A stretch of 64,000 nucleotides of DNA from Planktothrix pseudagardhii (GTDB lineage Bacteria > Cyanobacteriota > Cyanobacteriia > Cyanobacteriales > Microcoleaceae), in contig NZ_LR882967.1 of the NCBI RefSeq assembly GCF_904830925.1, positions 3,554,106 through 3,618,105 on the forward strand, given 5' to 3'. The notes under the pieces are model-generated. The model was not told where the DNA came from. It worked only from the letters and a program-made list of their open reading frames with translations, and made no database searches. How positions within the stretch are numbered: the stretch's first letter is position 1; the number at the start of each line of letters is the position of its first letter. Positions 2 to 51,169 of this stretch are shown here, piece by piece. The position numbers and the translations under genes were made by a program.

Positions 2-1480
2 CTAATCTAATTCCTGTTCTAATACATTAGCGATCGCTCGTTTTGTATTTTCGCTAAATTCTCGCACATTTACCCGATTTAATAAAATAATTGCCAGCAT
101 CATTCCGATGGCTTGAACTGTAAAAACCGTTCCATAAGCTAAAACAGGAACCTGAAAGATCGCCCGTCCTAAATCTAAAACCGCACCCCCTAAAACCGTT
201 GCTAATCCTCGCGCCATTGCTTGAGCTAAACCCCAAGCTCCAATAAAAGTTCCGGCTGTTTCAGCTAAGGTTAAATCTAACATTAAATTAATCGCTCCCG
301 CCGTTAGAATTCCTGAACATAAACCAAAGCCTAATAATGACCCTTTTAAAAAGACAGGGTTAGCGGTAAACCCTGCTATAATGAAGAATATTAAACAAAT
401 TGAAACTCCGACACAACCAATTTTAACTGTATTTTTTTTACCGAGACGAGGAACCATTAAAAATCCCGTTGAAGCAATGCCAATTAAGGTTCCTGTTCCA
501 AAAAACGCATTTAATTTTGTGGTTTCAGACACACACATTCCAAAGACTTCACCCCCATAGGGTTCTAAAATTGCATCCTGCATAAATAAGCTAATGGTCA
601 TCACCAACAAAAAGGTAAAAAATAATCCGGTTTGGGGACTAGCGGTTAAAATTTTAAGGGCACGATTTAAAGTAATTTGATCTTCGCGTTCCACAACAGT
701 AGAGCGCAATTGGTAACGAGAGAACCGACGTTCAATACCGATGGTTGCAATCACGGATAATCCGATCACCATTAACGGTACAATGATAAATAACGGAGTA
801 ACAGAGGCTTGTAATTCAGGTAAATTTGTGGTTGTTGCTATGGGGTTCTCGGTCAAAATCGCAGCCCCACACAGTTCAGGACGATGAAGAATTTTAGAAC
901 TGATAATGGCTCCAATGACAATTCCCACCATTAACATTGACCAAACAATACTAATTAATTTAGAGCGATTATCTTCATCGGAAACATCAAATAAAAGGGC
1001 AGTAAAGGGAGTGGAACTCGCACTTAATGCTAAACCATATCCGGCAAAAATAAACGCTAATAAACCAGCCCATAAATAAGCGATTCCATTAAATCCATTG
1101 GCTTGAATACTAGCCCCTAATTGCCAAACCACTTGTATCGCTAAAAATGAAGCACTGGTAAATAAAATTAACCCAATCCATACATAGCTACTGCGATGAT
1201 ATCCCCATAACGGTTTGGTATCGGACATCTGACCAAACCACACCCTAGCAGGAGCAACAAATTGGTGCATTGCGATCGCCCCTGCTGCAATTAACGCCGG
1301 AACTTTTAACTCATCAATCATAATTCGGTTAATCACACCCAGGGTTAGTAAAGACATAATTCCTAACCCCATTTGATACAAACCTAACCGAAACATGGTA
1401 AATAGAGGAATGGGGGGCAAGGGTTTACCCTCTAGGGGATTAGAGGTTGAGGATTGCTCTGAGGAATCACCGATTTTCAT
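2..1480 (-). CDS. PucC/BCD-family MFS-type membrane transporter (bacteriochlorophyll-delivery-like)
   Basis: 492-aa ORF rich in hydrophobic segments, about 12 predicted TM helices. The N-terminal block PLPPIPLFTMFRLGLYQMGLGIMSLLTLGVINRIM resembles the PucC/BCD MFS family as I recall it. The ORF is complete, with its stop at 2-4. Confidence 0.5.
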   Translation of the reverse strand: MKIGDSSEQSSTSNPLEGKPLPPIPLFTMFRLGLYQMGLGIMSLLTLGVINRIMIDELKVPALIAAGAIAMHQFVAPARVWFGQMSDTKPLWGYHRSSYVWIGLILFTSASFLAIQVVWQLGASIQANGFNGIAYLWAGLLAFIFAGYGLALSASSTPFTALLFDVSDEDNRSKLISIVWSMLMVGIVIGAIISSKILHRPELCGAAILTENPIATTTNLPELQASVTPLFIIVPLMVIGLSVIATIGIERRFSRYQLRSTVVEREDQITLNRALKILTASPQTGLFFTFLLVMTISLFMQDAILEPYGGEVFGMCVSETTKLNAFFGTGTLIGIASTGFLMVPRLGKKNTVKIGCVGVSICLIFFIIAGFTANPVFLKGSLLGFGLCSGILTAGAINLMLDLTLAETAGTFIGAWGLAQAMARGLATVLGGAVLDLGRAIFQVPVLAYGTVFTVQAIGMMLAIILLNRVNVREFSENTKRAIANVLEQELD

Positions 1481-5888: not shown

Positions 5889-8279
5889 TTATAAGTATTG
5901 ATAATAAATTGCCCAAATTGCCATCGCTCTTAAATAATGACTGGCGCGAAATGTGCCAACGGCTGTAATGGCTTCGGGTGTACGAAATTGTAAACCATTT
6001 TCATAGATTTGTTTAACGACAACTTCCGTTAATTCTAACGCTTCCGCTTTCATTCCCATTTGTAAGAAAAACGCGGCTAACCCAAAATTAATTCCTGTCC
6101 AAACTTCTAAGGGATGGGTATCTTGAGGATTAACCGCTTCTCCCGTCGGTCTAACACCATTAGCTGCGCCGAATTGTCCATTATGAAACTTTTTAAAACA
6201 GGAATCATAAACGTTTTTTAAAGCCGAAATTGTACAATCAGCAGGAACAATATCCGGTAATTCTAATAATCTAGCATAGAATTGACCACATAATTGATCT
6301 GCCATGACCACATCAGAGCCACTACCACTATCCAAACGATAATATTGACCATTCCAAAGGTTTTTTTGATACAAAGGTTTAGCCGTTTCTAACCAAGCTT
6401 GATAGGTCGGAAGAACGCTTTTAGGAGACGGGGTAACGGCTTCCTTTTCTAACGCTTTCCCCATAGCAATCATCGCTTCTAATGCTGCTAACCATAACCC
6501 CCCGCAATAGGCACTAATTCCCTGTAATCTCCAATCATCAAAAGTTTGATCAGGTGCGCCACTATTTTCGGGAATTGAATCTTGATCTAAATCAAAGGTT
6601 TTCAGATAATTTAGGGTTTCAACCATCGCTGACCAACAATCTTTTAAAAACTCATAATCTGTTCCCCCCGTTAATCGAAAATCTCGATAAACTTGCAACA
6701 CAAAATCACAAGGTAAATCCTTCCAAAGGTTACAATCTTGATAACTGGTGTAATTGGTTTTTTCCCAAGGATGTTCATTGGGCGCGCCTAAATCATGGGG
6801 AGTTGCACCGACGGCTTTACGAATTGCAGAGGCTTGATTATAACCAATAATTCGCGGGGTATTATCGCCTTGATAAATCGCACGGGAATAGGCAATTAAT
6901 ATGGATTTTTCTAACTCTGGCCATAACATTAAAAGAGAAAATGATCCATATAAACGCACATCTAAACTTTCATACCAGCGATAATCTAAACATTCTAAAA
7001 CTGCAAATTGACCGATAGGATCACGTTCATCTGCCGCAGTCCAAAGTGCACCTCCATCCGTGAGTAAATATAGCTCATTAAAGAGTGCCATTTTAAACCA
7101 ATTGGGTAAATCTTGACGTTGTAAAATTGGGTTTTGCCACAGTTCAATCTGTTCTCGCCAAGTATCAGAATGCTTCATCGCTGTGCGAATCATTGACCAA
7201 GCATTGTGACCATTCCGACCAAAAAAATCAGTATAACGACGATAATAATTAATTCCTGATGCAAATTCAGTAATAGGTAAATCCCAGGCTAAATAAAATG
7301 GAATTTTGCGAGTTTTTCCCGGTCGAATTGTAAATTTAACTGCTAAAGCAACTGCAAGTCGTTCATCTTCTTTGGCCGGATGTTCACTTTCTTGATCTAA
7401 TAATGTGCCATCTTCAGCAAAATATTGCCAAATATCTTCCCCATTTCCTATAGGGTTCCAACGGGTTTGATAATACACTTCAACCGCAGGATTTATAATG
7501 GTGGCAATTGCCATTTGTCCTTCCCCTTCCCGCACCTCTTCATGGGTACTTAGACGAGTCATTAAACAGCCAATACGATGAAAATCTTCAACTAATCGAT
7601 TAACACTTCCGGCACTATTTCCCCATCGGGGTTGATATTCATAAACCGGACTGCCATCATCTCTGACTTTGACTTCAGGACTCGCTAAACTATTGGTAAA
7701 CCATCCAATCGTATTTTCCCAGGTTAATAATATACTTAAGGTAATCGGTTCATCCGTTGGGTTGTGAGCTATCCATTCAAAAATTGCAATAGGATAACTA
7801 CTTTCTTGATAATTTTTTGCCCAAACTGGAGAAAATTGTTCACAAGTTAATTGTGCTGAAAATACATTTTCATAAACAAACCAACTGCGAGGATATAACG
7901 CATGATAGGTTCCTGTTTGTTCAGGATAATTTTTAGGATTAGGATACCAATTCCACGCCGCTAAACTCCCATCTTCTGGCGGTTCTGTTGATAAAGCGTA
8001 AGCTTTTTTTTGACCGTTGATTTCTTCAAAAATACTAAATTGACAAGCGGGAAGATTTCTAAAAATATGTTCTCCCCCGTCCAAATGCCAAAGGTTAAAA
8101 TCTCCCCGTGAAGACCGTCCAATGCAACCTGCACCCAACCCCCCTAACGGCATTCCGTGCCAAGGGCCATCATCTAAATTACTGGCGTAGCGAACGGTAT
8201 AAGGTTTTTCCCACCCTAAACCAATGGGACGACTCCAAGTAGACTCAGGAATATTGTTAATAGGGCTAGAATGGGTCAT
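5889..8279 (-). CDS. GH116-family glycosidase (GBA2-type non-lysosomal glucosylceramidase / bile-acid beta-glucosidase-like)
   Basis: 796 aa. The N-terminal block WHGMPLGGLGAGCIGRSSRGDFNLWHL and overall length match GBA2/GH116 proteins as recalled. Confidence 0.6.
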   Translation of the reverse strand: MTHSSPINNIPESTWSRPIGLGWEKPYTVRYASNLDDGPWHGMPLGGLGAGCIGRSSRGDFNLWHLDGGEHIFRNLPACQFSIFEEINGQKKAYALSTEPPEDGSLAAWNWYPNPKNYPEQTGTYHALYPRSWFVYENVFSAQLTCEQFSPVWAKNYQESSYPIAIFEWIAHNPTDEPITLSILLTWENTIGWFTNSLASPEVKVRDDGSPVYEYQPRWGNSAGSVNRLVEDFHRIGCLMTRLSTHEEVREGEGQMAIATIINPAVEVYYQTRWNPIGNGEDIWQYFAEDGTLLDQESEHPAKEDERLAVALAVKFTIRPGKTRKIPFYLAWDLPITEFASGINYYRRYTDFFGRNGHNAWSMIRTAMKHSDTWREQIELWQNPILQRQDLPNWFKMALFNELYLLTDGGALWTAADERDPIGQFAVLECLDYRWYESLDVRLYGSFSLLMLWPELEKSILIAYSRAIYQGDNTPRIIGYNQASAIRKAVGATPHDLGAPNEHPWEKTNYTSYQDCNLWKDLPCDFVLQVYRDFRLTGGTDYEFLKDCWSAMVETLNYLKTFDLDQDSIPENSGAPDQTFDDWRLQGISAYCGGLWLAALEAMIAMGKALEKEAVTPSPKSVLPTYQAWLETAKPLYQKNLWNGQYYRLDSGSGSDVVMADQLCGQFYARLLELPDIVPADCTISALKNVYDSCFKKFHNGQFGAANGVRPTGEAVNPQDTHPLEVWTGINFGLAAFFLQMGMKAEALELTEVVVKQIYENGLQFRTPEAITAVGTFRASHYLRAMAIWAIYYQYL

Positions 8280-42743: not shown

Positions 42744-43118
42744 TTATTGGGTGTCTATTCGCGCTTTTAAATCCGCGATTTGTTTTTGAAGTTGTTGCAC
42801 ATCTTGTTTTGTTTCTATGACTAAGGTGGCTAACCGATCAAACATCGGATCACCCGAAAGGAAACGATTTTCCGGTTGAGGCGGAGGACTGGTTGCATCT
42901 GGTTCAACCTGAATTACTGTTGTTCCTGAGCTTTGATATCGCAAACTATTAATCTGTCCTGCCAGTTGAGACACTTGTGCTTCTAATCGACTCATGCGAT
43001 ATTCAAGCTGAGTGGCTGAACCTTGTGCTAAGGTCAAACTATTCCAACCCAGCGTAACCCCTAAAATGATTGTAATAGCCAGAATAAGATTCTGGAACCC
43101 AAAACGCTTTTTTACCAT
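42744..43118 (-). CDS. hypothetical protein with N-terminal TM/signal and coiled coil
   Basis: 124 aa. Hydrophobic N-terminus, then heptad-like QLEYRMSRLEAQVSQLAGQINSL. Confidence 0.4.
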   Translation of the reverse strand: MVKKRFGFQNLILAITIILGVTLGWNSLTLAQGSATQLEYRMSRLEAQVSQLAGQINSLRYQSSGTTVIQVEPDATSPPPQPENRFLSGDPMFDRLATLVIETKQDVQQLQKQIADLKARIDTQ

Positions 43119-43138
43119 ATTTTAACCCCTTATCCTTT

Positions 43139-43795
43139 TTGTTTAGGATTACTGAACTAATGACTCAAAAAAATATTGCTATTTTAATGTTTAATGACGT
43201 TGAAATTCTGGATTTTGCTGGCCCCTATGAGGTATTTTCTATTGCCTCAGAAATTAACGAAGATAAACCCTTTAATGTTTATCTAGTGGCAGAAACCTTA
43301 AATTCTCTTCAATCCCATAATGGCTTAAGTATTAATCCTGATTTCACCTTATTAGATAGTCCCGTCCCTGATGTAATTTTTATACCGGGTGGAATTGGCA
43401 CAAAGGCTGCGATGAATCAACTTCAAATTTTAGCTTGGATTCAATCTAAAGGACATTATGCTGATTTAATTGTATCGGTCTGTACGGGGGCTTTACTGTT
43501 AGCTAAAGTTGGTTTATTAGATGGGTTAGTTGCGACTACTCATCATCTAGCCTTAGAGCAATTAAGAGCGCTTGCTCCCCAGACTACTATTGTAGACAAT
43601 CAACGATATGTTGATAATGGCAAAATTATCACAGCGGCCGGAATTTCGGCGGGAATTGATGTGTCTCTTTATGTTATTGCTAAACTTTTAGGGGATGACA
43701 AAGCTTTAAAAACGGCTCAATACATGGAATATGATTGGAAACCCAAAGCTAAAATCACCCCAACGCCTAAAATATCAAATTCTTTGGGGCTCTAA
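43139..43795 (+). CDS. DJ-1/PfpI-family (class I glutamine amidotransferase-like) protein
   Basis: 218 aa with the nucleophile-elbow Cys in LIVSVCTGALLLAKVGLLDG. Confidence 0.8.
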   Translation: MFRITELMTQKNIAILMFNDVEILDFAGPYEVFSIASEINEDKPFNVYLVAETLNSLQSHNGLSINPDFTLLDSPVPDVIFIPGGIGTKAAMNQLQILAWIQSKGHYADLIVSVCTGALLLAKVGLLDGLVATTHHLALEQLRALAPQTTIVDNQRYVDNGKIITAAGISAGIDVSLYVIAKLLGDDKALKTAQYMEYDWKPKAKITPTPKISNSLGL

Positions 43796-43956
43796 TTCTG
43801 TTTGAGCTTGCATAAGTTGAATCACTTCAGAGATAGGTAAACTTGAGGGGTGAGATCACCTTGCCCCTCTGTCCTAAATCACTCGTTGGAGTTGTTGGTG
43901 GCTTGGGATTTATAAGCCGAATTCAACAAGACACCGACTTCCTCTGTTCCTAATCC

Positions 43957-45444
43957 ATGAGTAAAGCATCAAAGTATTGGACACTGGTTAAACTCGAAAG
44001 TTCTGGCCGACAAAAACGGTCGGAAATAGCAGCAGCCAAAGCCTTTTTTGAGAGGGCTTTTCCAGAATTCCTCGCAGAGGCGGATGTTCCCGATGTACCC
44101 ATTCAGAAGCAATTAGTACAATGGCTTCGTGATGGCAATTCTCAAGGGAATAATATCAATAGCCAAAATGCAGAATGTTGTCTTTTATGCTTTATTTCTT
44201 GGGAAATTGAACAGGTTTGTCTTCAGTTAGCTCAACAATTTGGAACCTATCATGGTTTTAGAAGCCAAGACTTATTCCCCTTTGTTTTGGATGAAGAAGG
44301 AATTAATCGTCAGCGCCATTTAGGACAAACAAAAACTTCTTATCAATCCTTTGCACGGGAAATTTTACAAACCTTTGATCCCCAGCAAAGTAGTTTAGCA
44401 ACTTGGACAAACCGACGAGTTAAATTTAATAGTGAAATCAATAAGTTTTTACTAGAGCATGGGGTGTATCTCGTGAGTGATTGGGCAATTTTAAATGATA
44501 CCCATCCTCAACAACTGGAAAAAATTTTAACCCAGTTTTATCAATTAACGTCCCTGGAAGTTGAACAACGATTACAGCTTTTAGCTTGCTACCATAGCGT
44601 TTACCGTAGCCAACGTTTACAACAACGTCAAGCCGGAGCTAGAAAACGCTGTCAACCGCCAACGGCTCAACAATATCAACAAATTGCTCAACGGTTAGAA
44701 ACCTTAATTCAACAGAGGATTTCTCCTAAAGCCGTCGCCCTGAAATTACAAAATCTAGCGACTCTATTACGCCAATATCGCACCTATATTCGAGGAGGAA
44801 AGTTACCCAACCAATCCTTAATTTTTGTTGATGATTCTGATTCCATCATTGAACAAATTCCTAGCCCTGAACCCCTAGAAAACGATGAGGAACAAATCAA
44901 AAAACAGGAGTTTTTAAACTGGTATGAAAAACAGTTTTTGATGTGTTTACATAGCAGTATTGCTCAAGTTTTAGAAACCTGGTTAACAACTTGCCAAAAG
45001 CGAGACGGAGAAAAAGCGGAACAATTTTTAACCGCCCTTTATCTGTTTCATTGTCAGGGTCAATCTATGAGCGAAATTGCAGCTACATTAGGATTAAAAG
45101 CTCAGTATCAAGTAACTCGTTTATTAAAGCTTAAAGCCTTTCGCGCTGATGTCAGACATCACTTATTATTTCAGTTACGCGATCGCATTTTAGAGTATGC
45201 CAAACCTGAGCATCTTTCCCAAGAGTTAGAACAGTGGGAAAAACAAATTGAATTAGCCTTAGATGGAGAATTGGAAACCTTGTTTAAACAAGCTGAATCT
45301 GATTCCTATATTGCTCAAAATCGTCCCCTAAATAGTCCCTTTTTTAAAGGCGTTTGCTACTATTTAGATTTAAGAGAAAAAAGTCCAGAATTGATTCATT
45401 CCATGATTTCTTTATTATCTAAAAATTCCCGACGGAGCTATTAA
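43957..45444 (+). CDS. hypothetical protein with a sigma-70 region-4-like HTH near the C-terminus
   Basis: 495 aa. The segment LYLFHCQGQSMSEIAATLGLKAQYQVTRLLKLKAF resembles an ECF sigma region-4 HTH. It ends 3 bp before the next ORF. Confidence 0.45.
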   Translation: MSKASKYWTLVKLESSGRQKRSEIAAAKAFFERAFPEFLAEADVPDVPIQKQLVQWLRDGNSQGNNINSQNAECCLLCFISWEIEQVCLQLAQQFGTYHGFRSQDLFPFVLDEEGINRQRHLGQTKTSYQSFAREILQTFDPQQSSLATWTNRRVKFNSEINKFLLEHGVYLVSDWAILNDTHPQQLEKILTQFYQLTSLEVEQRLQLLACYHSVYRSQRLQQRQAGARKRCQPPTAQQYQQIAQRLETLIQQRISPKAVALKLQNLATLLRQYRTYIRGGKLPNQSLIFVDDSDSIIEQIPSPEPLENDEEQIKKQEFLNWYEKQFLMCLHSSIAQVLETWLTTCQKRDGEKAEQFLTALYLFHCQGQSMSEIAATLGLKAQYQVTRLLKLKAFRADVRHHLLFQLRDRILEYAKPEHLSQELEQWEKQIELALDGELETLFKQAESDSYIAQNRPLNSPFFKGVCYYLDLREKSPELIHSMISLLSKNSRRSY

Positions 45445-45446
45445 TA

Positions 45447-46817
45447 ATGTTTACTTCTTTCTTAGATGAATCAGAGGTTTTGTTTGAGTTTGAACCGCTT
45501 AATCCTGAAGCTTTACCTTTATCTTCTGAACAAATTAATCAATCCTTAGATTATTGTCGTTCTATTCTCGATGATCGAAAACAATGGCAAACCTATCTCA
45601 ATTCTCTAGCTTTCTTTGGGTTTCAAAATTGGTTAGAACAGCGTTCATCAGAACTTGTCTTCAATTTAGATCATCCTTCTTTAGAAAAACCTGAATTAGC
45701 TTATTTTATTGAAGCCGTTTGTAACTTAGCCGTCAATCAATTTAAAATCTGCTTAGTCGCCTTGGGAAATTCTAGGACGGATACTATTATTTTACCTAGG
45801 GCTATATTTGAATTACCGGAATATAGGGCTCATTATTATATTTTAATTGAGGTTCAAGAAGAATTAGAAACAACTTCAATTTATGGGTTTATTTCCTATT
45901 CAGATTTTCAAGCCCATAAAACACAGATTGATTTAGAACCCAAAGCAGATTGGACATATTCTGTCCCCTTATCTTGGTTTAACACAGAACCCGATCAATT
46001 TTTATTATTTGTACGCTGTTTAGAAGTTTCTGCAATTCCTTTACCGGAAATTCAGAATCCTGCAATACTATTATCTCAAATTCGAGAAGAATTAATTAGC
46101 AAACTTTCTCAACTGCAATCCTCAGAACCTGGTAGTTTTCATGAATTGTGGCAAATTTTAACTTGGGAACAGGGAAAGATTATTTTCAGTTATCCTGAAT
46201 TACTGCGATGGATTTATGAAGTACAAAACCAAGCCATTTTATCGGCACAACCGATTTCTCAATTCCATAAAAATCCTATTGCTTATTTAACAGATTTATT
46301 CAATTTATTAACACAACCGACGCTAAATTTAGCGGGATGGTTTAACCAGGAATTAGACATAATATCAACAGCTTTATCCTGGGTTTTTATTCCAGATTTT
46401 TCTCCAGAAACCGCCTTGCGTGACGGAACTGAAATTTCCAGTTTAGTCAAACAACTCCAAGAAAATGGGGTCGAAATTTCTCCCCAAGCCAAAGGTGCTT
46501 ATCGAGATTTAGGTTTAGGAGGACGTTCTCTGCGGTTATATGCTTTAACTTGGCCGTTAGAATGGGAAATTGAACCCGAATGGACGCTATTATTAATATT
46601 AGGTTTAACTACAGGAACGGATTTACCAGTGGGTGTGAAATTACGAGTCAGTGACGCCACCGGAATTTTAGTTGAACAAGATTCAAATCGCGAAGATCAG
46701 TGTTCTTATTTATTTACTCGTGTGGTCGGAACCTGTCAAGAAAAATTTGTGGTGACGGTGAGTTTAAGGGAAGATATAACAGAAACATTACCGCCTTTTG
46801 AATTTAGTTTCAATTAA
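45447..46817 (+). CDS. hypothetical protein (cyanobacterial DUF1822-like size and composition; unverified)
   Basis: 456 aa with no motif recognised. Tightly coupled to both flanking genes by a 3-bp gap upstream and a 20-bp overlap downstream. Confidence 0.45.
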   Translation: MFTSFLDESEVLFEFEPLNPEALPLSSEQINQSLDYCRSILDDRKQWQTYLNSLAFFGFQNWLEQRSSELVFNLDHPSLEKPELAYFIEAVCNLAVNQFKICLVALGNSRTDTIILPRAIFELPEYRAHYYILIEVQEELETTSIYGFISYSDFQAHKTQIDLEPKADWTYSVPLSWFNTEPDQFLLFVRCLEVSAIPLPEIQNPAILLSQIREELISKLSQLQSSEPGSFHELWQILTWEQGKIIFSYPELLRWIYEVQNQAILSAQPISQFHKNPIAYLTDLFNLLTQPTLNLAGWFNQELDIISTALSWVFIPDFSPETALRDGTEISSLVKQLQENGVEISPQAKGAYRDLGLGGRSLRLYALTWPLEWEIEPEWTLLLILGLTTGTDLPVGVKLRVSDATGILVEQDSNREDQCSYLFTRVVGTCQEKFVVTVSLREDITETLPPFEFSFN

Positions 46818-49305
46818 GATTCAAAACCTAAATATGAATGCCATTGTTTCCCCTTTTTATCTCAAAGTTCAACGAGTTGAGCAGGTTTGCTTATTTCAAT
46901 TATCTTGGGGGGAAGGGCAAAATTTGGGAGTCACGCTTCCCTATCCTGAACGATTAACTCAACTGTATCAAGAGTGGCAATATATTTATTTGAGTTTTTA
47001 TCAGAAAGCACTGCGAGGTCGAGTGGAAGCGACCGGAAAACTTACCCAAAGCCAAACAGATTGGCACGCTAAATTAGTTCAAGCAGAAGCAAAATTATTA
47101 TATGAATTTCATCGCTGGTTAAGACATGAAGAATTATATGAAATTCGAGCAACTCTGGCTAAAGCGACATCAAAGCAGAATTTAGAAACTTTACCGCGTG
47201 GCGTTGGATTAGATATTGATGTGTTTCTCACCACTGACCCGATAGATGTGGCTCGACTTCCTTGGGAAGCGTGGGAAATTGGTACAGAATTTGCGGCGAC
47301 TGGAAAAATTAGAATTGTTCGTCAACCGATTAATATTCGTCAGGTTACAACGACTCCCGAACATCGACCAACCCGCAATAAAGTTAGGGTATTAGTAATT
47401 TTAGGAGATGAAACGGGGTTAAATTTTCAAGCTGATCAAGAAGCGGTGCGAGCGCTCGCTCCAATTGCAGAAATTCAGTTTGTCGGTTGGCAACCTCAAC
47501 AAACTGTAATGGAAGTTAAACTTGCAGTGGTTAAAGCCATTCAAGATCAAAAAGGTTGGGATATTTTACTATTTGCTGGTCATAGTAATGAAACGGAATT
47601 AACCGGAGGAGAATTAGGGATTGCGCCCTCAGTTTCGTTGTCCTTATCCGAACTGATTCAACCCTTAACTGTTGCAAAACAACGAGGCTTACAATTTGCC
47701 TTATTTAATTCTTGTAATGGTTTAAGTTTAGCGAATACCTTGATTGATTTAGGATTAAATCAAGTGGCGATTATGCGAGAACCTATCCATAATCAAGTGG
47801 CTCAAGAATTTTTATTACGGTTTATTCGGAGCTTAACGGAATATTATGATGTCCATGATGCCTTATTATCCGCTTGTCAATTCCTCAAATTAGAAAAACA
47901 TTTAACTTATCCCAGTGCCTATTTAATTCCTTCCTTATTCCGCCATCCCAAAGCTCCTCCGTTTAAATTACAAGCCTTCAGTTGGAAACAACGATTAAAA
48001 CGATGGTTCCCCACAAAAAAAGAACTCCTTGCCCTAACAACCTTATGCGTTATCGCTTGGCAAACGCCTATTCAAAATTTTTTATTAGAACGACGAATTT
48101 TGATTCAAGCAATTTATCGAAATTTAACTCATCAAATTCCAACTCAATCCTCTCCCCCAATTCTACTAATTTTAATTGATGAAAAATCTATTCTAAAAGC
48201 TAAAATTTCTAATCCAAGACCGATGGATCGAAGTTATTTAGCTGAGATTATTAATCATTTAATTAAACTCAATATGCAAGTAATTGGCATTGATTATTTA
48301 TTAGATCGTCATCAACCTCAAAACGATCCCATCTTATCCCAATCTTTACAAAATGCAGTTCAAAATCATCAAACTTGGTTAATATTTGGAACGAGTAAAA
48401 ATCCCACCGGAGGATGGTTTGAAACCTTACCCGAATTAGCGAGTCCTAATTGGAGCTTACAAGGCGATTTAAGAATATTAGGTTATCCTCCCCTCTATAC
48501 CACCTTACTGCCTCTTCCTGACTCTCGACAACAACCTTTACCCTTCGCTTATTTATTGGCTTTAGCGTATCAATTAAACTTTCAAGAACGAGAATCTACC
48601 CCTGCCCCTCAACTGGACTCATCCGTTGATTGGCTATCCCATTTAAAAGCCTATTTAATTGATAATACCGGAACAGATTATCAAAGGTTATTTTCATCAA
48701 AAGCACGTTTACAACCGATCACAAATTGGGCATATTTATTAAAGCAATGGTGGTTTCATCCCCTGATTGATTTTTCAATTCCCCCAAAACAAGTTTATCA
48801 AAGTCTTCCCGCTTGGCAATTATTTGAGTCTCCAGAGTCTACCTTGAAACTTTCTACTCCCTTTGTCGTTCTAATTGCACCAGGGGGATATGGTGAAGCC
48901 GGAATTGCAACAGAAGGTCAAGATAATTTTCCTTTACCTATGGCATTAAATTATTGGTATTCTCAGGAAACACCACGCAATTATCGCCAAGTCTTACCGG
49001 GAGGTGAAGTTCATGCTTACATGACTCATCACTTTATTCAGCAACGATTTGTGATTCCCATTCCTGACCTTTTGCTGATTTTAATTGCCGCTTTATTCGG
49101 AAAAGGAGCGACCTTATCCTTAGCAACAGTTCGTCCTCAAAAAATAAAGTATATCCTGGTGTTTGTGGGATTAACAGGAATATATGGATTAGTGAGTGTA
49201 CAGGTTTATATTACAGGCGAACTTTTGCTTCCTTGGGTGTTACCAGCCTTGATGTTTTGGATGTATATTTTTCTGACATTTGTGGAAAGGAAATTTTATG
49301 GCTAA
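46798..49305 (+). CDS. CHAT (caspase-like protease) domain - CHASE2 sensor domain membrane protein
   Basis: 835 aa. CHAT catalytic dyad contexts ILLFAGHSNE (His) and ALFNSCNGLSL (Cys). These are followed by a CHASE2-like region (ILLILIDEKS...VIGIDYLLDRHQP) and C-terminal TM helices. Confidence 0.7.
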   Translation: MNLVSIKIQNLNMNAIVSPFYLKVQRVEQVCLFQLSWGEGQNLGVTLPYPERLTQLYQEWQYIYLSFYQKALRGRVEATGKLTQSQTDWHAKLVQAEAKLLYEFHRWLRHEELYEIRATLAKATSKQNLETLPRGVGLDIDVFLTTDPIDVARLPWEAWEIGTEFAATGKIRIVRQPINIRQVTTTPEHRPTRNKVRVLVILGDETGLNFQADQEAVRALAPIAEIQFVGWQPQQTVMEVKLAVVKAIQDQKGWDILLFAGHSNETELTGGELGIAPSVSLSLSELIQPLTVAKQRGLQFALFNSCNGLSLANTLIDLGLNQVAIMREPIHNQVAQEFLLRFIRSLTEYYDVHDALLSACQFLKLEKHLTYPSAYLIPSLFRHPKAPPFKLQAFSWKQRLKRWFPTKKELLALTTLCVIAWQTPIQNFLLERRILIQAIYRNLTHQIPTQSSPPILLILIDEKSILKAKISNPRPMDRSYLAEIINHLIKLNMQVIGIDYLLDRHQPQNDPILSQSLQNAVQNHQTWLIFGTSKNPTGGWFETLPELASPNWSLQGDLRILGYPPLYTTLLPLPDSRQQPLPFAYLLALAYQLNFQERESTPAPQLDSSVDWLSHLKAYLIDNTGTDYQRLFSSKARLQPITNWAYLLKQWWFHPLIDFSIPPKQVYQSLPAWQLFESPESTLKLSTPFVVLIAPGGYGEAGIATEGQDNFPLPMALNYWYSQETPRNYRQVLPGGEVHAYMTHHFIQQRFVIPIPDLLLILIAALFGKGATLSLATVRPQKIKYILVFVGLTGIYGLVSVQVYITGELLLPWVLPALMFWMYIFLTFVERKFYG

Positions 49306-50035
49306 GTTCAACTTTGTGCGTTCTCTTTGGAGGTGCACAACCTTGGTAAGCATAATGGGATTTTCGGTTATCTCTCCCGCCTTGAGTGAACCCACGTTTC
49401 ATCCTTCAGAATTTAAAAAGATTTCCCCTGCTTGGGAAGAATTGTATCAGCTTGCTAATCAGGATTCTTCAACGACTAATCATGAACCGCCTGTCTATTC
49501 TCCTGGGGGTTCACGGGGAAATGAAATTTGTACAATTGTTCCTCTAACCCAACCTAATAATCATCAGGTTGATAGTGAAATTTGGAGTGACAAACCTACC
49601 TTTATTTGGCGAGGGGATATTAAATATGTAGAACTGCATTCTGATGACAATGAGACTTTAATTTGGAGTCAAAATATTTCGGATTCTAAGCAAAGTATTT
49701 CCTATACGGGAGAACCACTTCAACCCGGAGAAACCTATCAATTATCACTTTATGATATCTCTAATCCTGATATCAGTGATTTTCCCCGTGACTCTTTAAC
49801 TTTTAAAGTCATAGAAACCCATCAACACCAGAAAATTCAGCAGGATTTAGAACAATTAGAAACGCAACTGCATCAACAAAAAGCAACCGCAGAAGCAATT
49901 ACTTTAGCTCGGATTCAATATTTTGTGGAACATCAGTTATGGTCAGATGCTCTGATGGAATCTTCCTCACTTCAGATTCAAGACCCCAGTTTAGATGAGT
50001 TATTAAAAACTAAAGTGTCCCGTTCTTGTGGGTAA
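49280..50035 (+). CDS. secreted protein (DUF928-like; unverified); start possibly at 49298
   Basis: 251 aa with a signal peptide (VSIMGFSVISPALS). It overlaps the CHAT gene end by 26 bp. Confidence 0.45.
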   Translation: MWKGNFMAKFNFVRSLWRCTTLVSIMGFSVISPALSEPTFHPSEFKKISPAWEELYQLANQDSSTTNHEPPVYSPGGSRGNEICTIVPLTQPNNHQVDSEIWSDKPTFIWRGDIKYVELHSDDNETLIWSQNISDSKQSISYTGEPLQPGETYQLSLYDISNPDISDFPRDSLTFKVIETHQHQKIQQDLEQLETQLHQQKATAEAITLARIQYFVEHQLWSDALMESSSLQIQDPSLDELLKTKVSRSCG

Positions 50036-50251
50036 CTCAAAATTGGAATTTTAGATGGGTTTGATCTCTGCTTCAACCCCCGACTCATAGGAAGAAGGGG
50101 GTGAGATTCCATCCTTCAATGTTGACTACAAATACTTGCTAGGGTGGCTAATCACTTTTTCCTATCCCCTCTGTTCCCTTTTCCCTATTGATAATAAAGT
50201 GCTGAATTAATTTAAGATAGGAAGAAGACCTCAATTCCAATTTAGATTAAA

Positions 50252-51169
50252 ATGACAACAGAGACAGCAGCAACCTCAGTCTTGCCAACAGGTACATTAT
50301 GGCAACGGATTATTACTCAAACTGAATATGCTCTCAACTGTGGTGCTCTTCAATCAATTGCAACAGATTATGATTTTATTGAAGAGGGGGATATTCGCTT
50401 TTTAGTCAGAATTTTAGCTAACTTAGCGCGTAAGGAACAAGCGAAGAAACAGCAAAAAAAAATAGAGAAATCCGGGAAAGAGTTTAACCCTTTTCTTCCT
50501 TATGAAAAAGATTTATTTGTTGCTGATTTATCGAAAACTCATTTATGTTTACTGAATAAATTTAATGTAGTTGAGCATCATTTATTAATTGTAACCCGCG
50601 AATTTGAAGAACAAGAAACCTGGCTGACTCAAGCCGATTTTGCAGCTATGTGGATGGGTTTAGCAGAAATTGATGGATTAATGTTTTATAATGGGGGTAA
50701 ATTAGCGGGAGCAAGTCAACGGCATAAACATTTACAATTAGTTCCTTTCCCCTTAGTTCCCGATGGCTTAAATCTTCCCATTGAACCCGCGATCACTTCT
50801 GTACAATTTAAAAATTCTATTGGCATCATTCTCGAATTTCCATTTGTTCATGCGATCGCCTCTTTTAATCCTAATTGGATTCATACCCCATCAGAAGCCT
50901 CAATTTTTACCCTAGAATTGTATTTTGCATTATTATCAGCCGTGGGTTTATCAATTGATGATCATTCCTTTCAATCAGGAGCTTATAATTTATTAGCCAC
51001 CCGAAATTGGATGATGATTGTTCCTCGATCTCAAGAAGAGTTTGAGGGTATTTCAATTAATTCTTTAGGGTTTGCTGGAGGATTATTAGTCAGAAATTCC
51101 CAACAACTACAATGGCTGAAATCCTATCACCCCCTAACAGTTTTAAAACAAGTCGGAATTTCCCGTTAA
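50252..51169 (+). CDS. ATP adenylyltransferase / Ap4A phosphorylase II-like (HIT-related) protein
   Basis: 305 aa with an HxHxQ-type motif (QRHKHLQLVP) in the context typical of Apa2-like proteins. Confidence 0.6.
   Translation: MTTETAATSVLPTGTLWQRIITQTEYALNCGALQSIATDYDFIEEGDIRFLVRILANLARKEQAKKQQKKIEKSGKEFNPFLPYEKDLFVADLSKTHLCLLNKFNVVEHHLLIVTREFEEQETWLTQADFAAMWMGLAEIDGLMFYNGGKLAGASQRHKHLQLVPFPLVPDGLNLPIEPAITSVQFKNSIGIILEFPFVHAIASFNPNWIHTPSEASIFTLELYFALLSAVGLSIDDHSFQSGAYNLLATRNWMMIVPRSQEEFEGISINSLGFAGGLLVRNSQQLQWLKSYHPLTVLKQVGISR

Follow-up and report, generated by a model that had tools for sequence, protein, structure and literature searches.

The locus described here raises the question of how a membrane-bound, caspase-like protease might be wired to a transcription regulator encoded next to it, and what such a wiring would control. 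It lies in a stretch of 64,000 nucleotides (nt) from Planktothrix pseudagardhii (contig NZ_LR882967.1, positions 3,554,106 to 3,618,105 of the forward strand), which we call the window, and occupies positions 43957-50035. The original prediction had placed four plus-strand open reading frames (ORFs) there and all of them are present at the positions it gave: ORF1, a putative sigma-70-like protein; ORF2, a DUF1822 protein; ORF3, a CHAT/CHASE2 membrane protein; and ORF4, a DUF928-type protein. By the description in the main-text passages of Kaur, Burroughs, Iyer and Aravind (eLife 2021; PMC8195603), this operon is of the computationally defined EACC2-caspase/sigma/DUF1822 kind. What is new here, relative to those passages, is a promoter-like motif, its co-variation with ORF1 and the link it provides to exported TPR-CHAT, Peptidase_C14 and Peptidase_S8 proteins. 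We consider the chances evenly balanced that the four genes form a trans-envelope proteolytic switch that would set the activity of a sigma-like factor and of an exported-protease regulon.

The first step is to establish which of these genes belong together. A profile-guided scan of one genome per species gave at least 573 relatives of ORF3, and the best 80 loci, essentially all cyanobacterial, were analysed. ORF1 and ORF2 stand upstream of ORF3 on the same strand in 40 of the 68 loci with enough flanking sequence, and the pairs ORF1+ORF2 and ORF3+ORF4 are unlinked in 28 of the 68. By tblastn, 58 of 73 loci have a DUF928 gene after ORF3, and a profile search of the loci gave 65 DUF928-type ORFs; an unbroken run of all four genes is seen in 33 of the 64 loci whose flanks are long enough. 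ORF2 adjoins ORF1 even where the sensor pair sits elsewhere in the genome; thus in Lyngbya aestuarii the pairs are split and each is intact, with the ORF1 and DUF1822 genes adjoining at another place. According to the source names in the homologue lists, both ORF1 and ORF3 homologues occur in Okeania, Dapis, Coleofasciculus and Capilliphycus. The arrangement is not a product of chance, as it recurs in several cyanobacterial orders; the recurring co-conservation also upholds the claimed functional linkage of the four genes, which we regard as highly probable. Co-conservation is found at the level of two pairs, however, and not of a fixed four-gene block. The gene set is best described as two obligate pairs, ORF1-DUF1822 and CHAT/CHASE2-DUF928, that are often joined.

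The connection between these pairs and other genes is provided by a motif. Alignment of the 250 nt upstream of ORF1 from 41 loci gave the consensus TGCATAAGT-N11-AGAaATA. The hexamer TGCATA occurs in 28 of the 41 upstream regions against at most 13 in shuffles, and AGAaATA follows it at fixed spacing. The copy in the window consists of a -35-like TGCATA (43809-43814), a 17-nt spacer and a -10-like GATAGG (43832-43837); it begins directly 3' of the stop codon of a DJ-1 gene and ends 118 nt from the ORF1 start codon. It is the single match in the 64 kb, with a score of 30.3-34.9, while the runner-up (13.8) is within the range of shuffles.

A two-block matrix with flexible spacing was then scanned over 1.1 Mb of related loci at a score of at least 18, which gave 114 matches in the real loci, 0 in shuffled loci and, for column-permuted matrices, a mean of 1.6 and a maximum of 5 (n=40). 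Among the genes that follow the motif are ORF1 (29 matches); ORF3 (10 matches), in loci that part it from ORF2 or leave a space between the two; a single BLAST cluster of 39 TPR/TPR-CHAT genes, 33 of them with signal-like N-termini; four Peptidase_S8 genes; and one Peptidase_C14+DUF4384 gene with a twin-arginine signal. The 39-gene cluster holds proteins with TPR_12 repeats and a C-terminal CHAT domain (860-1200 aa; CHAT E 1e-59 to 1e-87), one protein with CHAT only, and small TPR proteins. The motif stands at a median of 101 nt from the start codon of ORF1 orthologues and typically 25-50 nt from that of the other targets. A rigid matrix applied to at most 250 nt upstream of ORF3 in split loci was mostly negative; the ORF3 copies were found with the flexible matrix at 45-500 nt upstream.

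A check independent of ORF3 proximity was made on all metagenome contigs with the pattern TGCATAASY-N11-12-AGAAATATA. It returned many chance matches (for example on gut contigs), and only the families downstream on cyanobacterium-like contigs were used. Matches lie there upstream of ORF1 homologues (2), TPR-CHAT genes (5-6), Peptidase_C14 genes with a twin-arginine signal (2) and HisKA_3-like kinase genes (3). The last of these, a sensor-less histidine kinase of the HisKA_3 type, follows the motif in three independent contigs (L096, L107, L166). Response-regulator-like genes and a GerE/LuxR helix-turn-helix (HTH) gene adjoin other motif copies (L021 6641-7192, L023 401-1090, L045 10151-10831), and the regulon may also include a two-component pair of the NarL type.

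If ORF1 reads this motif, changes in the two should go together, and they appear to do so. The matrix was neutralised at the tested positions, and the statistics, by Fisher test, ignore shared ancestry. Where residue 384 of ORF1, in the first turn of the predicted recognition helix, is Tyr, a G stands two bases 3' of TGCATA in 14 of 16 loci; where it is Asp, a C stands there in 9 of 10 (p = 1.6e-4, not phylogeny-corrected). A contrast independent of phylogeny is offered by Leptolyngbya sp. BL-A-14, whose chromosomal copy (L041) is Tyr/G and whose plasmid copy (L077) is Asp/C. In Kaiparowitsia (L069) ORF1 carries Val384 and all three motif copies read TGAATA. This co-variation is what a cognate pair of factor and site would look like in sequences, and we lean moderately towards ORF1 as the factor that reads the motif. 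That it would do so as a true RNA-polymerase sigma subunit, and not as an activator at the -35 element, we hold with less confidence. Leptolyngbya sp. BL-A-14 carries two complete four-gene copies, one of them on a 288-kb plasmid, which suggests insulated paralogous circuits.

The nature of ORF1 itself is harder to grasp. It had been said to contain a sigma-70 region-4-like HTH, and of this description the sequence-level part fell away while a weak similarity of fold was retained. Neither Pfam nor NCBIfam gave a match for ORF1, and 26 homologues likewise gave none to sigma families at E<=5; scattered weak HTH and coiled-coil Pfam matches among the same 26 (E<=5) were treated as noise. Sequence and profile searches of PDB sequences returned nothing significant for ORF1, and the same holds for ORF3, so that both fold assignments rest on AlphaFold2 models. 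The ORF1 model (predicted local distance difference test score, pLDDT, 80) is all-helical with two disordered linkers (residues 114-129 and 285-309), and the protein has no hydrophobic segments. When Foldseek compared the model with the PDB, sigma/RNA-polymerase entries took the top five places (E 0.03-0.5), and four of these were sigma-A chains; the predicted fold resembles sigma regions 2 and 4 weakly. With hhalign, residues 356-390 were placed on region 4.2 of RpoE at a probability of 2%. Because the profile, PDB and fold support is weak, we use the name sigma-70-like without treating ORF1 as an established sigma factor: that it is a very divergent sigma-70-like DNA-binding protein is weakly supported by the predicted structure.

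ORF1 has about 1000 close cyanobacterial homologues, in 684 clusters at 50% identity. A profile search against 1.84 billion representatives gave, in its top 150, the ORF1 family only, with no bridge to classical sigma factors. It is a tentative idea, short of an even chance, that ORF1 founds an unclassified, cyanobacteria-specific sigma-70-like branch of some 700 clusters (50% identity), which would read TGCATA-17 nt-ATA promoters and regulate exported TPR-CHAT, C14 and subtilase proteins through CHAT-CHASE2-DUF928 sensing. In that case the abundant cyanobacterial TPR-CHAT proteins, of unknown function, would gain their first regulator and their first promoter code. Five cysteines of ORF1 are invariant (C78, C88, C232, C366 and C467), and a near-invariant C75 makes a CxxC with C78; the pattern suggests a metal or redox site, which could make the regulator itself a sensor.

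ORF3 holds both domains that had been predicted for it, each above its Pfam threshold: CHASE2 (PF05226) with 58.9 bits against a cut-off of 26.3 (E = 7.5e-16) and CHAT (PF12770) with 25.1 bits against 24 (E = 1.4e-5, residues 152-359 of the 835-aa version of the ORF). PF12770 is also precomputed for most ORF3 homologues. The His and Cys motifs that had been quoted are there, and when their conservation was checked, His250 (FAGHSNE) and Cys294 (FNSCxGL) proved invariant in 29 diverse homologues from several cyanobacterial orders. The AlphaFold2 model (pLDDT 79) gives the CHAT domain a caspase-hemoglobinase fold, which matches separase and the CHAT domain of Craspase. Thus the CHAT domain is an active-looking cysteine protease of the caspase/separase type, judged by these residues and its predicted fold. 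The alpha+beta region at the N-terminus is strongly conserved as well. The C-terminal transmembrane (TM) helices were also recovered, as three hydrophobic helices, so that one TM segment before CHASE2 and three after it bracket the sensor. Since ORF3 has no N-terminal signal, the CHAT domain should be cytoplasmic and CHASE2 periplasmic. Elsewhere CHASE2 usually precedes the output domain; ORF3 reverses that order.

ORF2, for which no motif had been recognised at first, matches DUF1822 (PF08852) with 185.9 bits over profile positions 1-369 of 370; it has no hydrophobic segments, and a sequence search gave no PDB relative. ORF4 scores 21.1 bits against DUF928 (PF06051), below the cut-off of 26 (E = 3e-4), while 16 of 23 ORF4 orthologues match the family at E<0.01 (best 1.6e-7) and UniRef and NCBI label ORF4 "DUF928 domain-containing"; by sequence, it is a divergent DUF928 subfamily. 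ORF4 has a conserved Cys pair (C78 and C244) and an N-terminal hydrophobic segment. Because 85% of the orthologues share this segment, ORF4 is probably exported, in agreement with the secreted fourth protein proposed earlier.

The tight packing of the genes that had been noted is real, but the spacings given for it (a 3-bp gap and overlaps of 20 and 26 bp) are not. Planktothrix annotation has ORF1 and ORF2 in identical form as WP_072719387 and WP_072719386. For ORF3 and ORF4, the lengths of 835 aa and 251 aa come from the TTG codon furthest upstream in each, and neither of these versions occurs in the protein collection; with ATG starts, ORF3 has 823 aa (ATG 46834) and ORF4 245 aa (ATG 49298), in exact agreement with the P. 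pseudagardhii proteins CAD5958579.1 and CAD5958595.1, and the homologue alignments begin at ATG, not at TTG. With the two starts corrected, 2 nt separate ORF1 from ORF2 (TAA TA ATG), 16 nt separate ORF2 from ORF3, and ORF3 overlaps ORF4 by 8 nt (ATGGCTAA). The last junction is conserved: 44 of 65 loci have the ATG of ORF4 precisely 8 nt ahead of the ORF3 stop (ATGnnTAA), with a GGAGAAA box upstream, which points to translational coupling.

Fusions among the distant ORF1 family, brought out by the profile search of the 1.84 billion representatives, supply a further kind of evidence. P0340 (907 aa) looks like a genuine fusion of ORF1 with DUF1822, and P0356 is a shorter protein of the same kind; P0387 joins CHAT, TRADD-like_N and ORF1, P0257 joins AAA_35 and ORF1, and P0314 joins AAA_35, TRADD-like_N and ORF1. 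These proteins support a physical cooperation of ORF1 with DUF1822, and of a CHAT protease with ORF1. They also agree with two plausible proposals of the original prediction, that an extracellular cue may gate the protease and that ORF1 or ORF2 may be its substrates. One ORF with both ORF1 and DUF1822 was also seen at L047 1514-3814, on a low-coverage contig of a metagenome-assembled genome, where it could be a sequencing artefact. In a Lyngbya aestuarii-like locus (L081 4788-7823), an HTH_VMAP-M9/AAA_35 gene and a PPC/Peptidase_S8 gene stand directly upstream of the ORF1-DUF1822 pair, and the subtilase gene has its own motif copy (6162-6197, score 30.1).

Taken together, these data can be arranged into the following mechanism. 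ORF3 would sit in the inner membrane, with its alpha+beta and CHAT domains in the cytoplasm and CHASE2 in the periplasm; ORF4, made in step with ORF3, would most likely be a co-sensor or ligand carrier for CHASE2, and ORF2 would be the cytoplasmic partner of ORF1, acting as an adaptor or anti-sigma factor. CHASE2/DUF928 would change on a cue from the periplasm or envelope, and the cytoplasmic CHAT domain would be switched on. It would then cleave ORF2 or a disordered linker of ORF1, and the freed ORF1 would drive transcription from TGCATA-17 nt-(a/g)ATAgg/tA promoters. The cleavage of ORF2 or ORF1 is a possibility to which we give slightly less than even weight. The motif in front of the operon in the window would give positive feedback. 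Since elsewhere it precedes the ORF3-ORF4 pair as well as exported TPR-CHAT, Peptidase_C14 and subtilase genes, extracytoplasmic proteases are the likely output.

Several observations weigh against this scheme. ORF4 is not next to ORF3 in Okeania/Dapis and in some Coleofasciculus loci; the co-variation is confounded by phylogeny save for the single contrast of chromosome and plasmid, and it has exceptions (L020, L013, L065). The -10-like half of the motif is A+T-rich and closer to housekeeping -10 boxes than to those of extracytoplasmic function (ECF) sigma factors, which fits an activator bound at -35. The window itself has the motif once, and the wider regulon is seen only in other genera. 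Finally, the motif upstream of ORF3 in split loci fits ORF3-ORF4 as outputs equally well as it fits them as an upstream sensor.

One would argue from this last point that ORF1-ORF2 is a self-contained regulator pair that answers to some other cytoplasmic signal, that it simply targets ORF3-ORF4 along with the exported proteins of the TPR-CHAT, C14 and S8 types, and that the ORF3 CHAT domain has different substrates, or only itself, and has no control over ORF1. This is the main rival to the reading that we favour, and we judge it unlikely, though deserving of real weight. The ten cases with a motif upstream of ORF3 in separated or spaced pairs, just as upstream of exported protease genes, speak for it, as do the 28 loci with unlinked pairs and the five to six conserved cysteines of ORF1, which could form a sensor site of its own. 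However, ECF-type systems commonly carry the genes for sensors and anti-sigma factors in the sigma factor's own regulon, and therefore the motif upstream of ORF3 does not discriminate. The CHAT+TRADD-like_N+ORF1 fusion and the frequent tight operon argue for a direct contact of protease and regulator. Additionally, in the main-text passages of PMC8195603, ECF sigma and DUF1822 genes accompany most of the EACC2-caspase genes whose neighbourhoods lack a TRADD-N gene, whatever their C-terminal sensor.

A second alternative is a conflict or programmed-cell-death system, in which an invader-derived molecule would be sensed, CHAT would activate itself and the sigma factor would launch an immune or suicidal response. 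The same passages favour this framing of conflict and apoptosis: they propose that a sensed stimulus activates the caspase and leads to sigma-driven transcription, and they present the EACC2-caspase group as kin to TRADD-N/STAND/AAA_35 systems read as acting against invaders (PMC8195603). It also agrees with the fusions of ORF1 to TRADD-like_N, AAA_35 and CHAT, and with defence-linked precedents for CHAT/sigma pairs in DdvA/DdvS (PMC11506125) and Craspase (PMC9825189). Against it, none of the four proteins matched a model in PADLOC-DB 2.0 (E<=0.01), and the CHASE2 version is conserved like orthologues across cyanobacterial orders (full-length identities of 43-74% for ORF3 in the best aligned segment, 33-68% for ORF1, and lower values for ORF2 and ORF4), a pattern that resembles an orthologous signalling pathway more than a patchy, rapidly diversifying defence island. 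The flanking genes in the window are of housekeeping type by Pfam (DJ-1/PfpI at 43139-43795 and Ap4A phosphorylase at 50252-51169), the sensor is on the periplasmic side, and instead of nucleases or other toxins the predicted output consists of exported proteases and TPR proteins. A defence or programmed-death role is thus a possible reading but less favoured than envelope signalling, and we think it somewhat improbable, slightly more so than the regulator pair. That the four genes are unrelated neighbours, or that ORF3 is an inactive pseudo-protease scaffold, could be argued from the pairs that occur without each other nearby and from the marginal Pfam score of CHAT, yet it is contradicted by the conservation, fusion and dyad results and is very improbable.

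The envelope-signalling switch that we favour has relatives in the literature, and the comparison defines what is particular to it. PMC8195603, a computational study, describes in its main-text passages EACC2-caspase systems with ECF sigma and DUF1822 genes, in which a constant EACC2 alpha+beta domain and a caspase domain are followed by variable C-termini, including CHASE2 with TM helices. The locus in the window resembles them in the alpha+beta domain before CHAT, the CHASE2 C-terminus and the sigma-like and DUF1822 neighbours; our EACC2 assignment rests on that published description and not on a profile. Therefore, the view that this gene set had not been worked out stands as far as experiments are concerned, as no experimental work on it came up in literature searches on DUF1822/DUF928, CHASE2+CHAT and EACC2, but the same architecture and hypothesis are already in print in those passages. 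There, ORF1 counts among the ECF sigma factors and DUF1822 among the TPR proteins, while here the sigma label is weakly supported by structure, and in contrast to the framing of conflict, our conservation data and predicted regulon point to envelope signalling and exported proteolysis. The main-text passages of PMC8195603 hold no mention of DUF928, of the coupled ORF3/ORF4 junction, of a promoter motif, of co-variation or of the target genes.

In the type III-E Craspase, the TPR-CHAT protein Csx29 cleaves Csx30, which binds the ECF sigma factor RpoE (PMC9825189). In contrast to Craspase, the locus has no CRISPR effector or RNA sensing and no association with gRAMP/Cas7-11 and a CRISPR array, as no cas genes were found at its flanks or among the examined neighbours of related loci; the sensor is periplasmic CHASE2, in the same polypeptide as the protease, and no sequence relation of DUF1822 and ORF1 to Csx30 and RpoE was detected. 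DdvA is a CHAT-bearing anti-sigma factor for DdvS (PMC11506125), with CHAT in the periplasm and a zinc anti-sigma domain in the cytoplasm. The predicted topology of ORF3 is inverted, with cytoplasmic CHAT and periplasmic CHASE2; no anti-sigma domain was detected in ORF3, so it departs from the DdvA architecture. The active site of DdvA is incomplete, whereas the dyad of ORF3 is conserved, and the periplasmic TPR-CHAT proteins are, in our case, separate exported members of the predicted regulon. HetF of Anabaena PCC 7120, like ORF3 by prediction, is a cyanobacterial CHAT protease, and it has a regulatory substrate, PatU3, which it degrades (PMC9457339, PMC8406250). Residues 151-352 of ORF3 (835-aa numbering) match the NCBIfam HetF model weakly (E = 7.6e-4), and since the 17.9 bits are far under the equivalog cut-off of 1200, ORF3 is at most a HetF paralogue. 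Unlike ORF3, HetF lacks CHASE2 and is not reported with ORF1, DUF1822 or DUF928 partners.

The logic of the proposed switch is familiar from RseA/sigma-E of Escherichia coli, where an envelope signal leads to proteolysis of the anti-sigma factor and release of the sigma factor, which induces its own operon. As proposed, our system would likewise turn an envelope signal, by proteolysis, into the release of a sigma-type factor and induction of its own operon. It differs in that the protease would be a cytoplasmic CHAT domain, of the cysteine type, on the same polypeptide as the sensor. The partner DUF1822 is a soluble protein where RseA is a membrane anti-sigma factor, and, judging by the locus, no site-1 or site-2 protease takes part.

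Filamentous and bloom-forming cyanobacteria such as Planktothrix are very rich in CHAT and orthocaspase proteins, which are often invoked in cell death and development. To our knowledge, HetF is the only one of them with a known substrate, and we know of nothing on how the exported TPR-CHAT proteins are controlled. If the switch that we propose is true, ORF1 is a candidate master regulator with DUF1822 as its restraining partner, the sensor can be turned on or off by clear mutations at His250/Cys294, and the 36-nt promoter signature can be searched for in any genome. It would add a third, topologically distinct wiring of a CHAT protease to a sigma-type factor beside Craspase-Csx30-RpoE and DdvA-DdvS, one that looks like housekeeping signalling and not like phage defence. 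The interest of the locus lies in this combination of wide conservation with a specific regulon hypothesis drawn from comparison.

Table 1. Features of the four-gene locus, in coordinates of the 64-kb window; ORF3 residues follow the 823-aa protein.
Feature	Position	Strand	Basis or remark
Bipartite promoter-like motif GAGCTTGCATAAGTTGAATCACTTCAGAGATAGGTA	43804..43839	+	Sole match in the 64-kb window; precedes ORF1 orthologues in most loci
Predicted 5' leader, ~110 nt	43845..43956	+	Assumes that transcription starts just 3' of the motif
ORF1, 495 aa, putative sigma-70-like, cytoplasmic, all-helical	43957..45444	+	HTH at residues 370-393 (nt 45064-45135)
ORF2, 456 aa, DUF1822 protein, predicted cytoplasmic partner of ORF1	45447..46817	+	Pfam E = 1.6e-54
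ORF3, 823 aa, putative membrane sensor-protease CHAT/CHASE2	46834..49305	+	Pfam, AlphaFold2 model
ORF3 N-terminal alpha+beta domain	residues 7-113, nt 46852-47172	+	AlphaFold2: three strands (7-36), three helices (39-113)
ORF3 CHAT domain	residues 128-370, nt 47215-47943	+	Pfam, AlphaFold2 alpha/beta domain
ORF3 putative catalytic His250, in LLFAGHSNE	47581-47583	+	Invariant in homologues
ORF3 putative catalytic Cys294, in LFNSCNGL	47713-47715	+	Invariant in homologues
ORF3 long TM helix before CHASE2	residues ~395-432	+	AlphaFold2
ORF3 CHASE2	residues 404-755, nt 48043-49098	+	Pfam
ORF3 three C-terminal TM helices	nt 49048-49287	+	Hydrophobicity, AlphaFold2
ORF4, 245 aa, DUF928-type, predicted exported	49298..50035	+	DUF928 21.1 bits; N-terminal hydrophobic segment

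The synteny of the flanking genes is shared only with one other Planktothrix locus (L001), and therefore the four genes constitute a self-contained unit. Scans of 43000-50400 with generic promoter and terminator consensus sequences gave counts equal to those of shuffles, an Rfam scan of 43000-51000 at E<=1 gave no RNA family, and a repeat search of the operon gave short repeats at chance level only.

The Okeania/Dapis loci (L003, L005, L006, L007, L010) hold ORF3 without either partner adjacent. That ORF4 is merely diverged in the loci that lack it was ruled out, as unrelated genes stand directly downstream of ORF3 there, encoding a hydrolase, a glycosyltransferase, Uma2 and a transposase-like HTH protein. 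In Okeania/Dapis, ORF3 is always accompanied by an ORF of about 470 aa some 0.6-2.9 kb upstream, which in L003 is class-A beta-lactamase/Peptidase_S11-like; a motif-like site lies inside this gene on the opposite strand. A CHASE2 "metacaspase" of Trichodesmium appears in catalogues only.

The leader of ORF1 has features of its own. Folded as 43845-43965, including the first 9 nt of ORF1, it reaches -40.5 kcal/mol (z = -3.1, with no shuffle as good); the putative 5' end forms a 10-bp hairpin, and the region of the start codon is paired in a second structure. In Calothrix/Scytonema-type loci (L015, L046, L052, L056, L063, L076, L078), but not in the window, another conserved element, GGAGGTGA(A/C)AAAATTGAGG, follows the motif ahead of the ORF1 start; it might be an element of the leader or, together with a TTG start upstream, a ribosome-binding site. 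In the window, GGGGTGAGAT occurs, possibly by chance, both in the ORF1 leader (43848-43860) and again in the spacer 3' of ORF4 (50097-50110).

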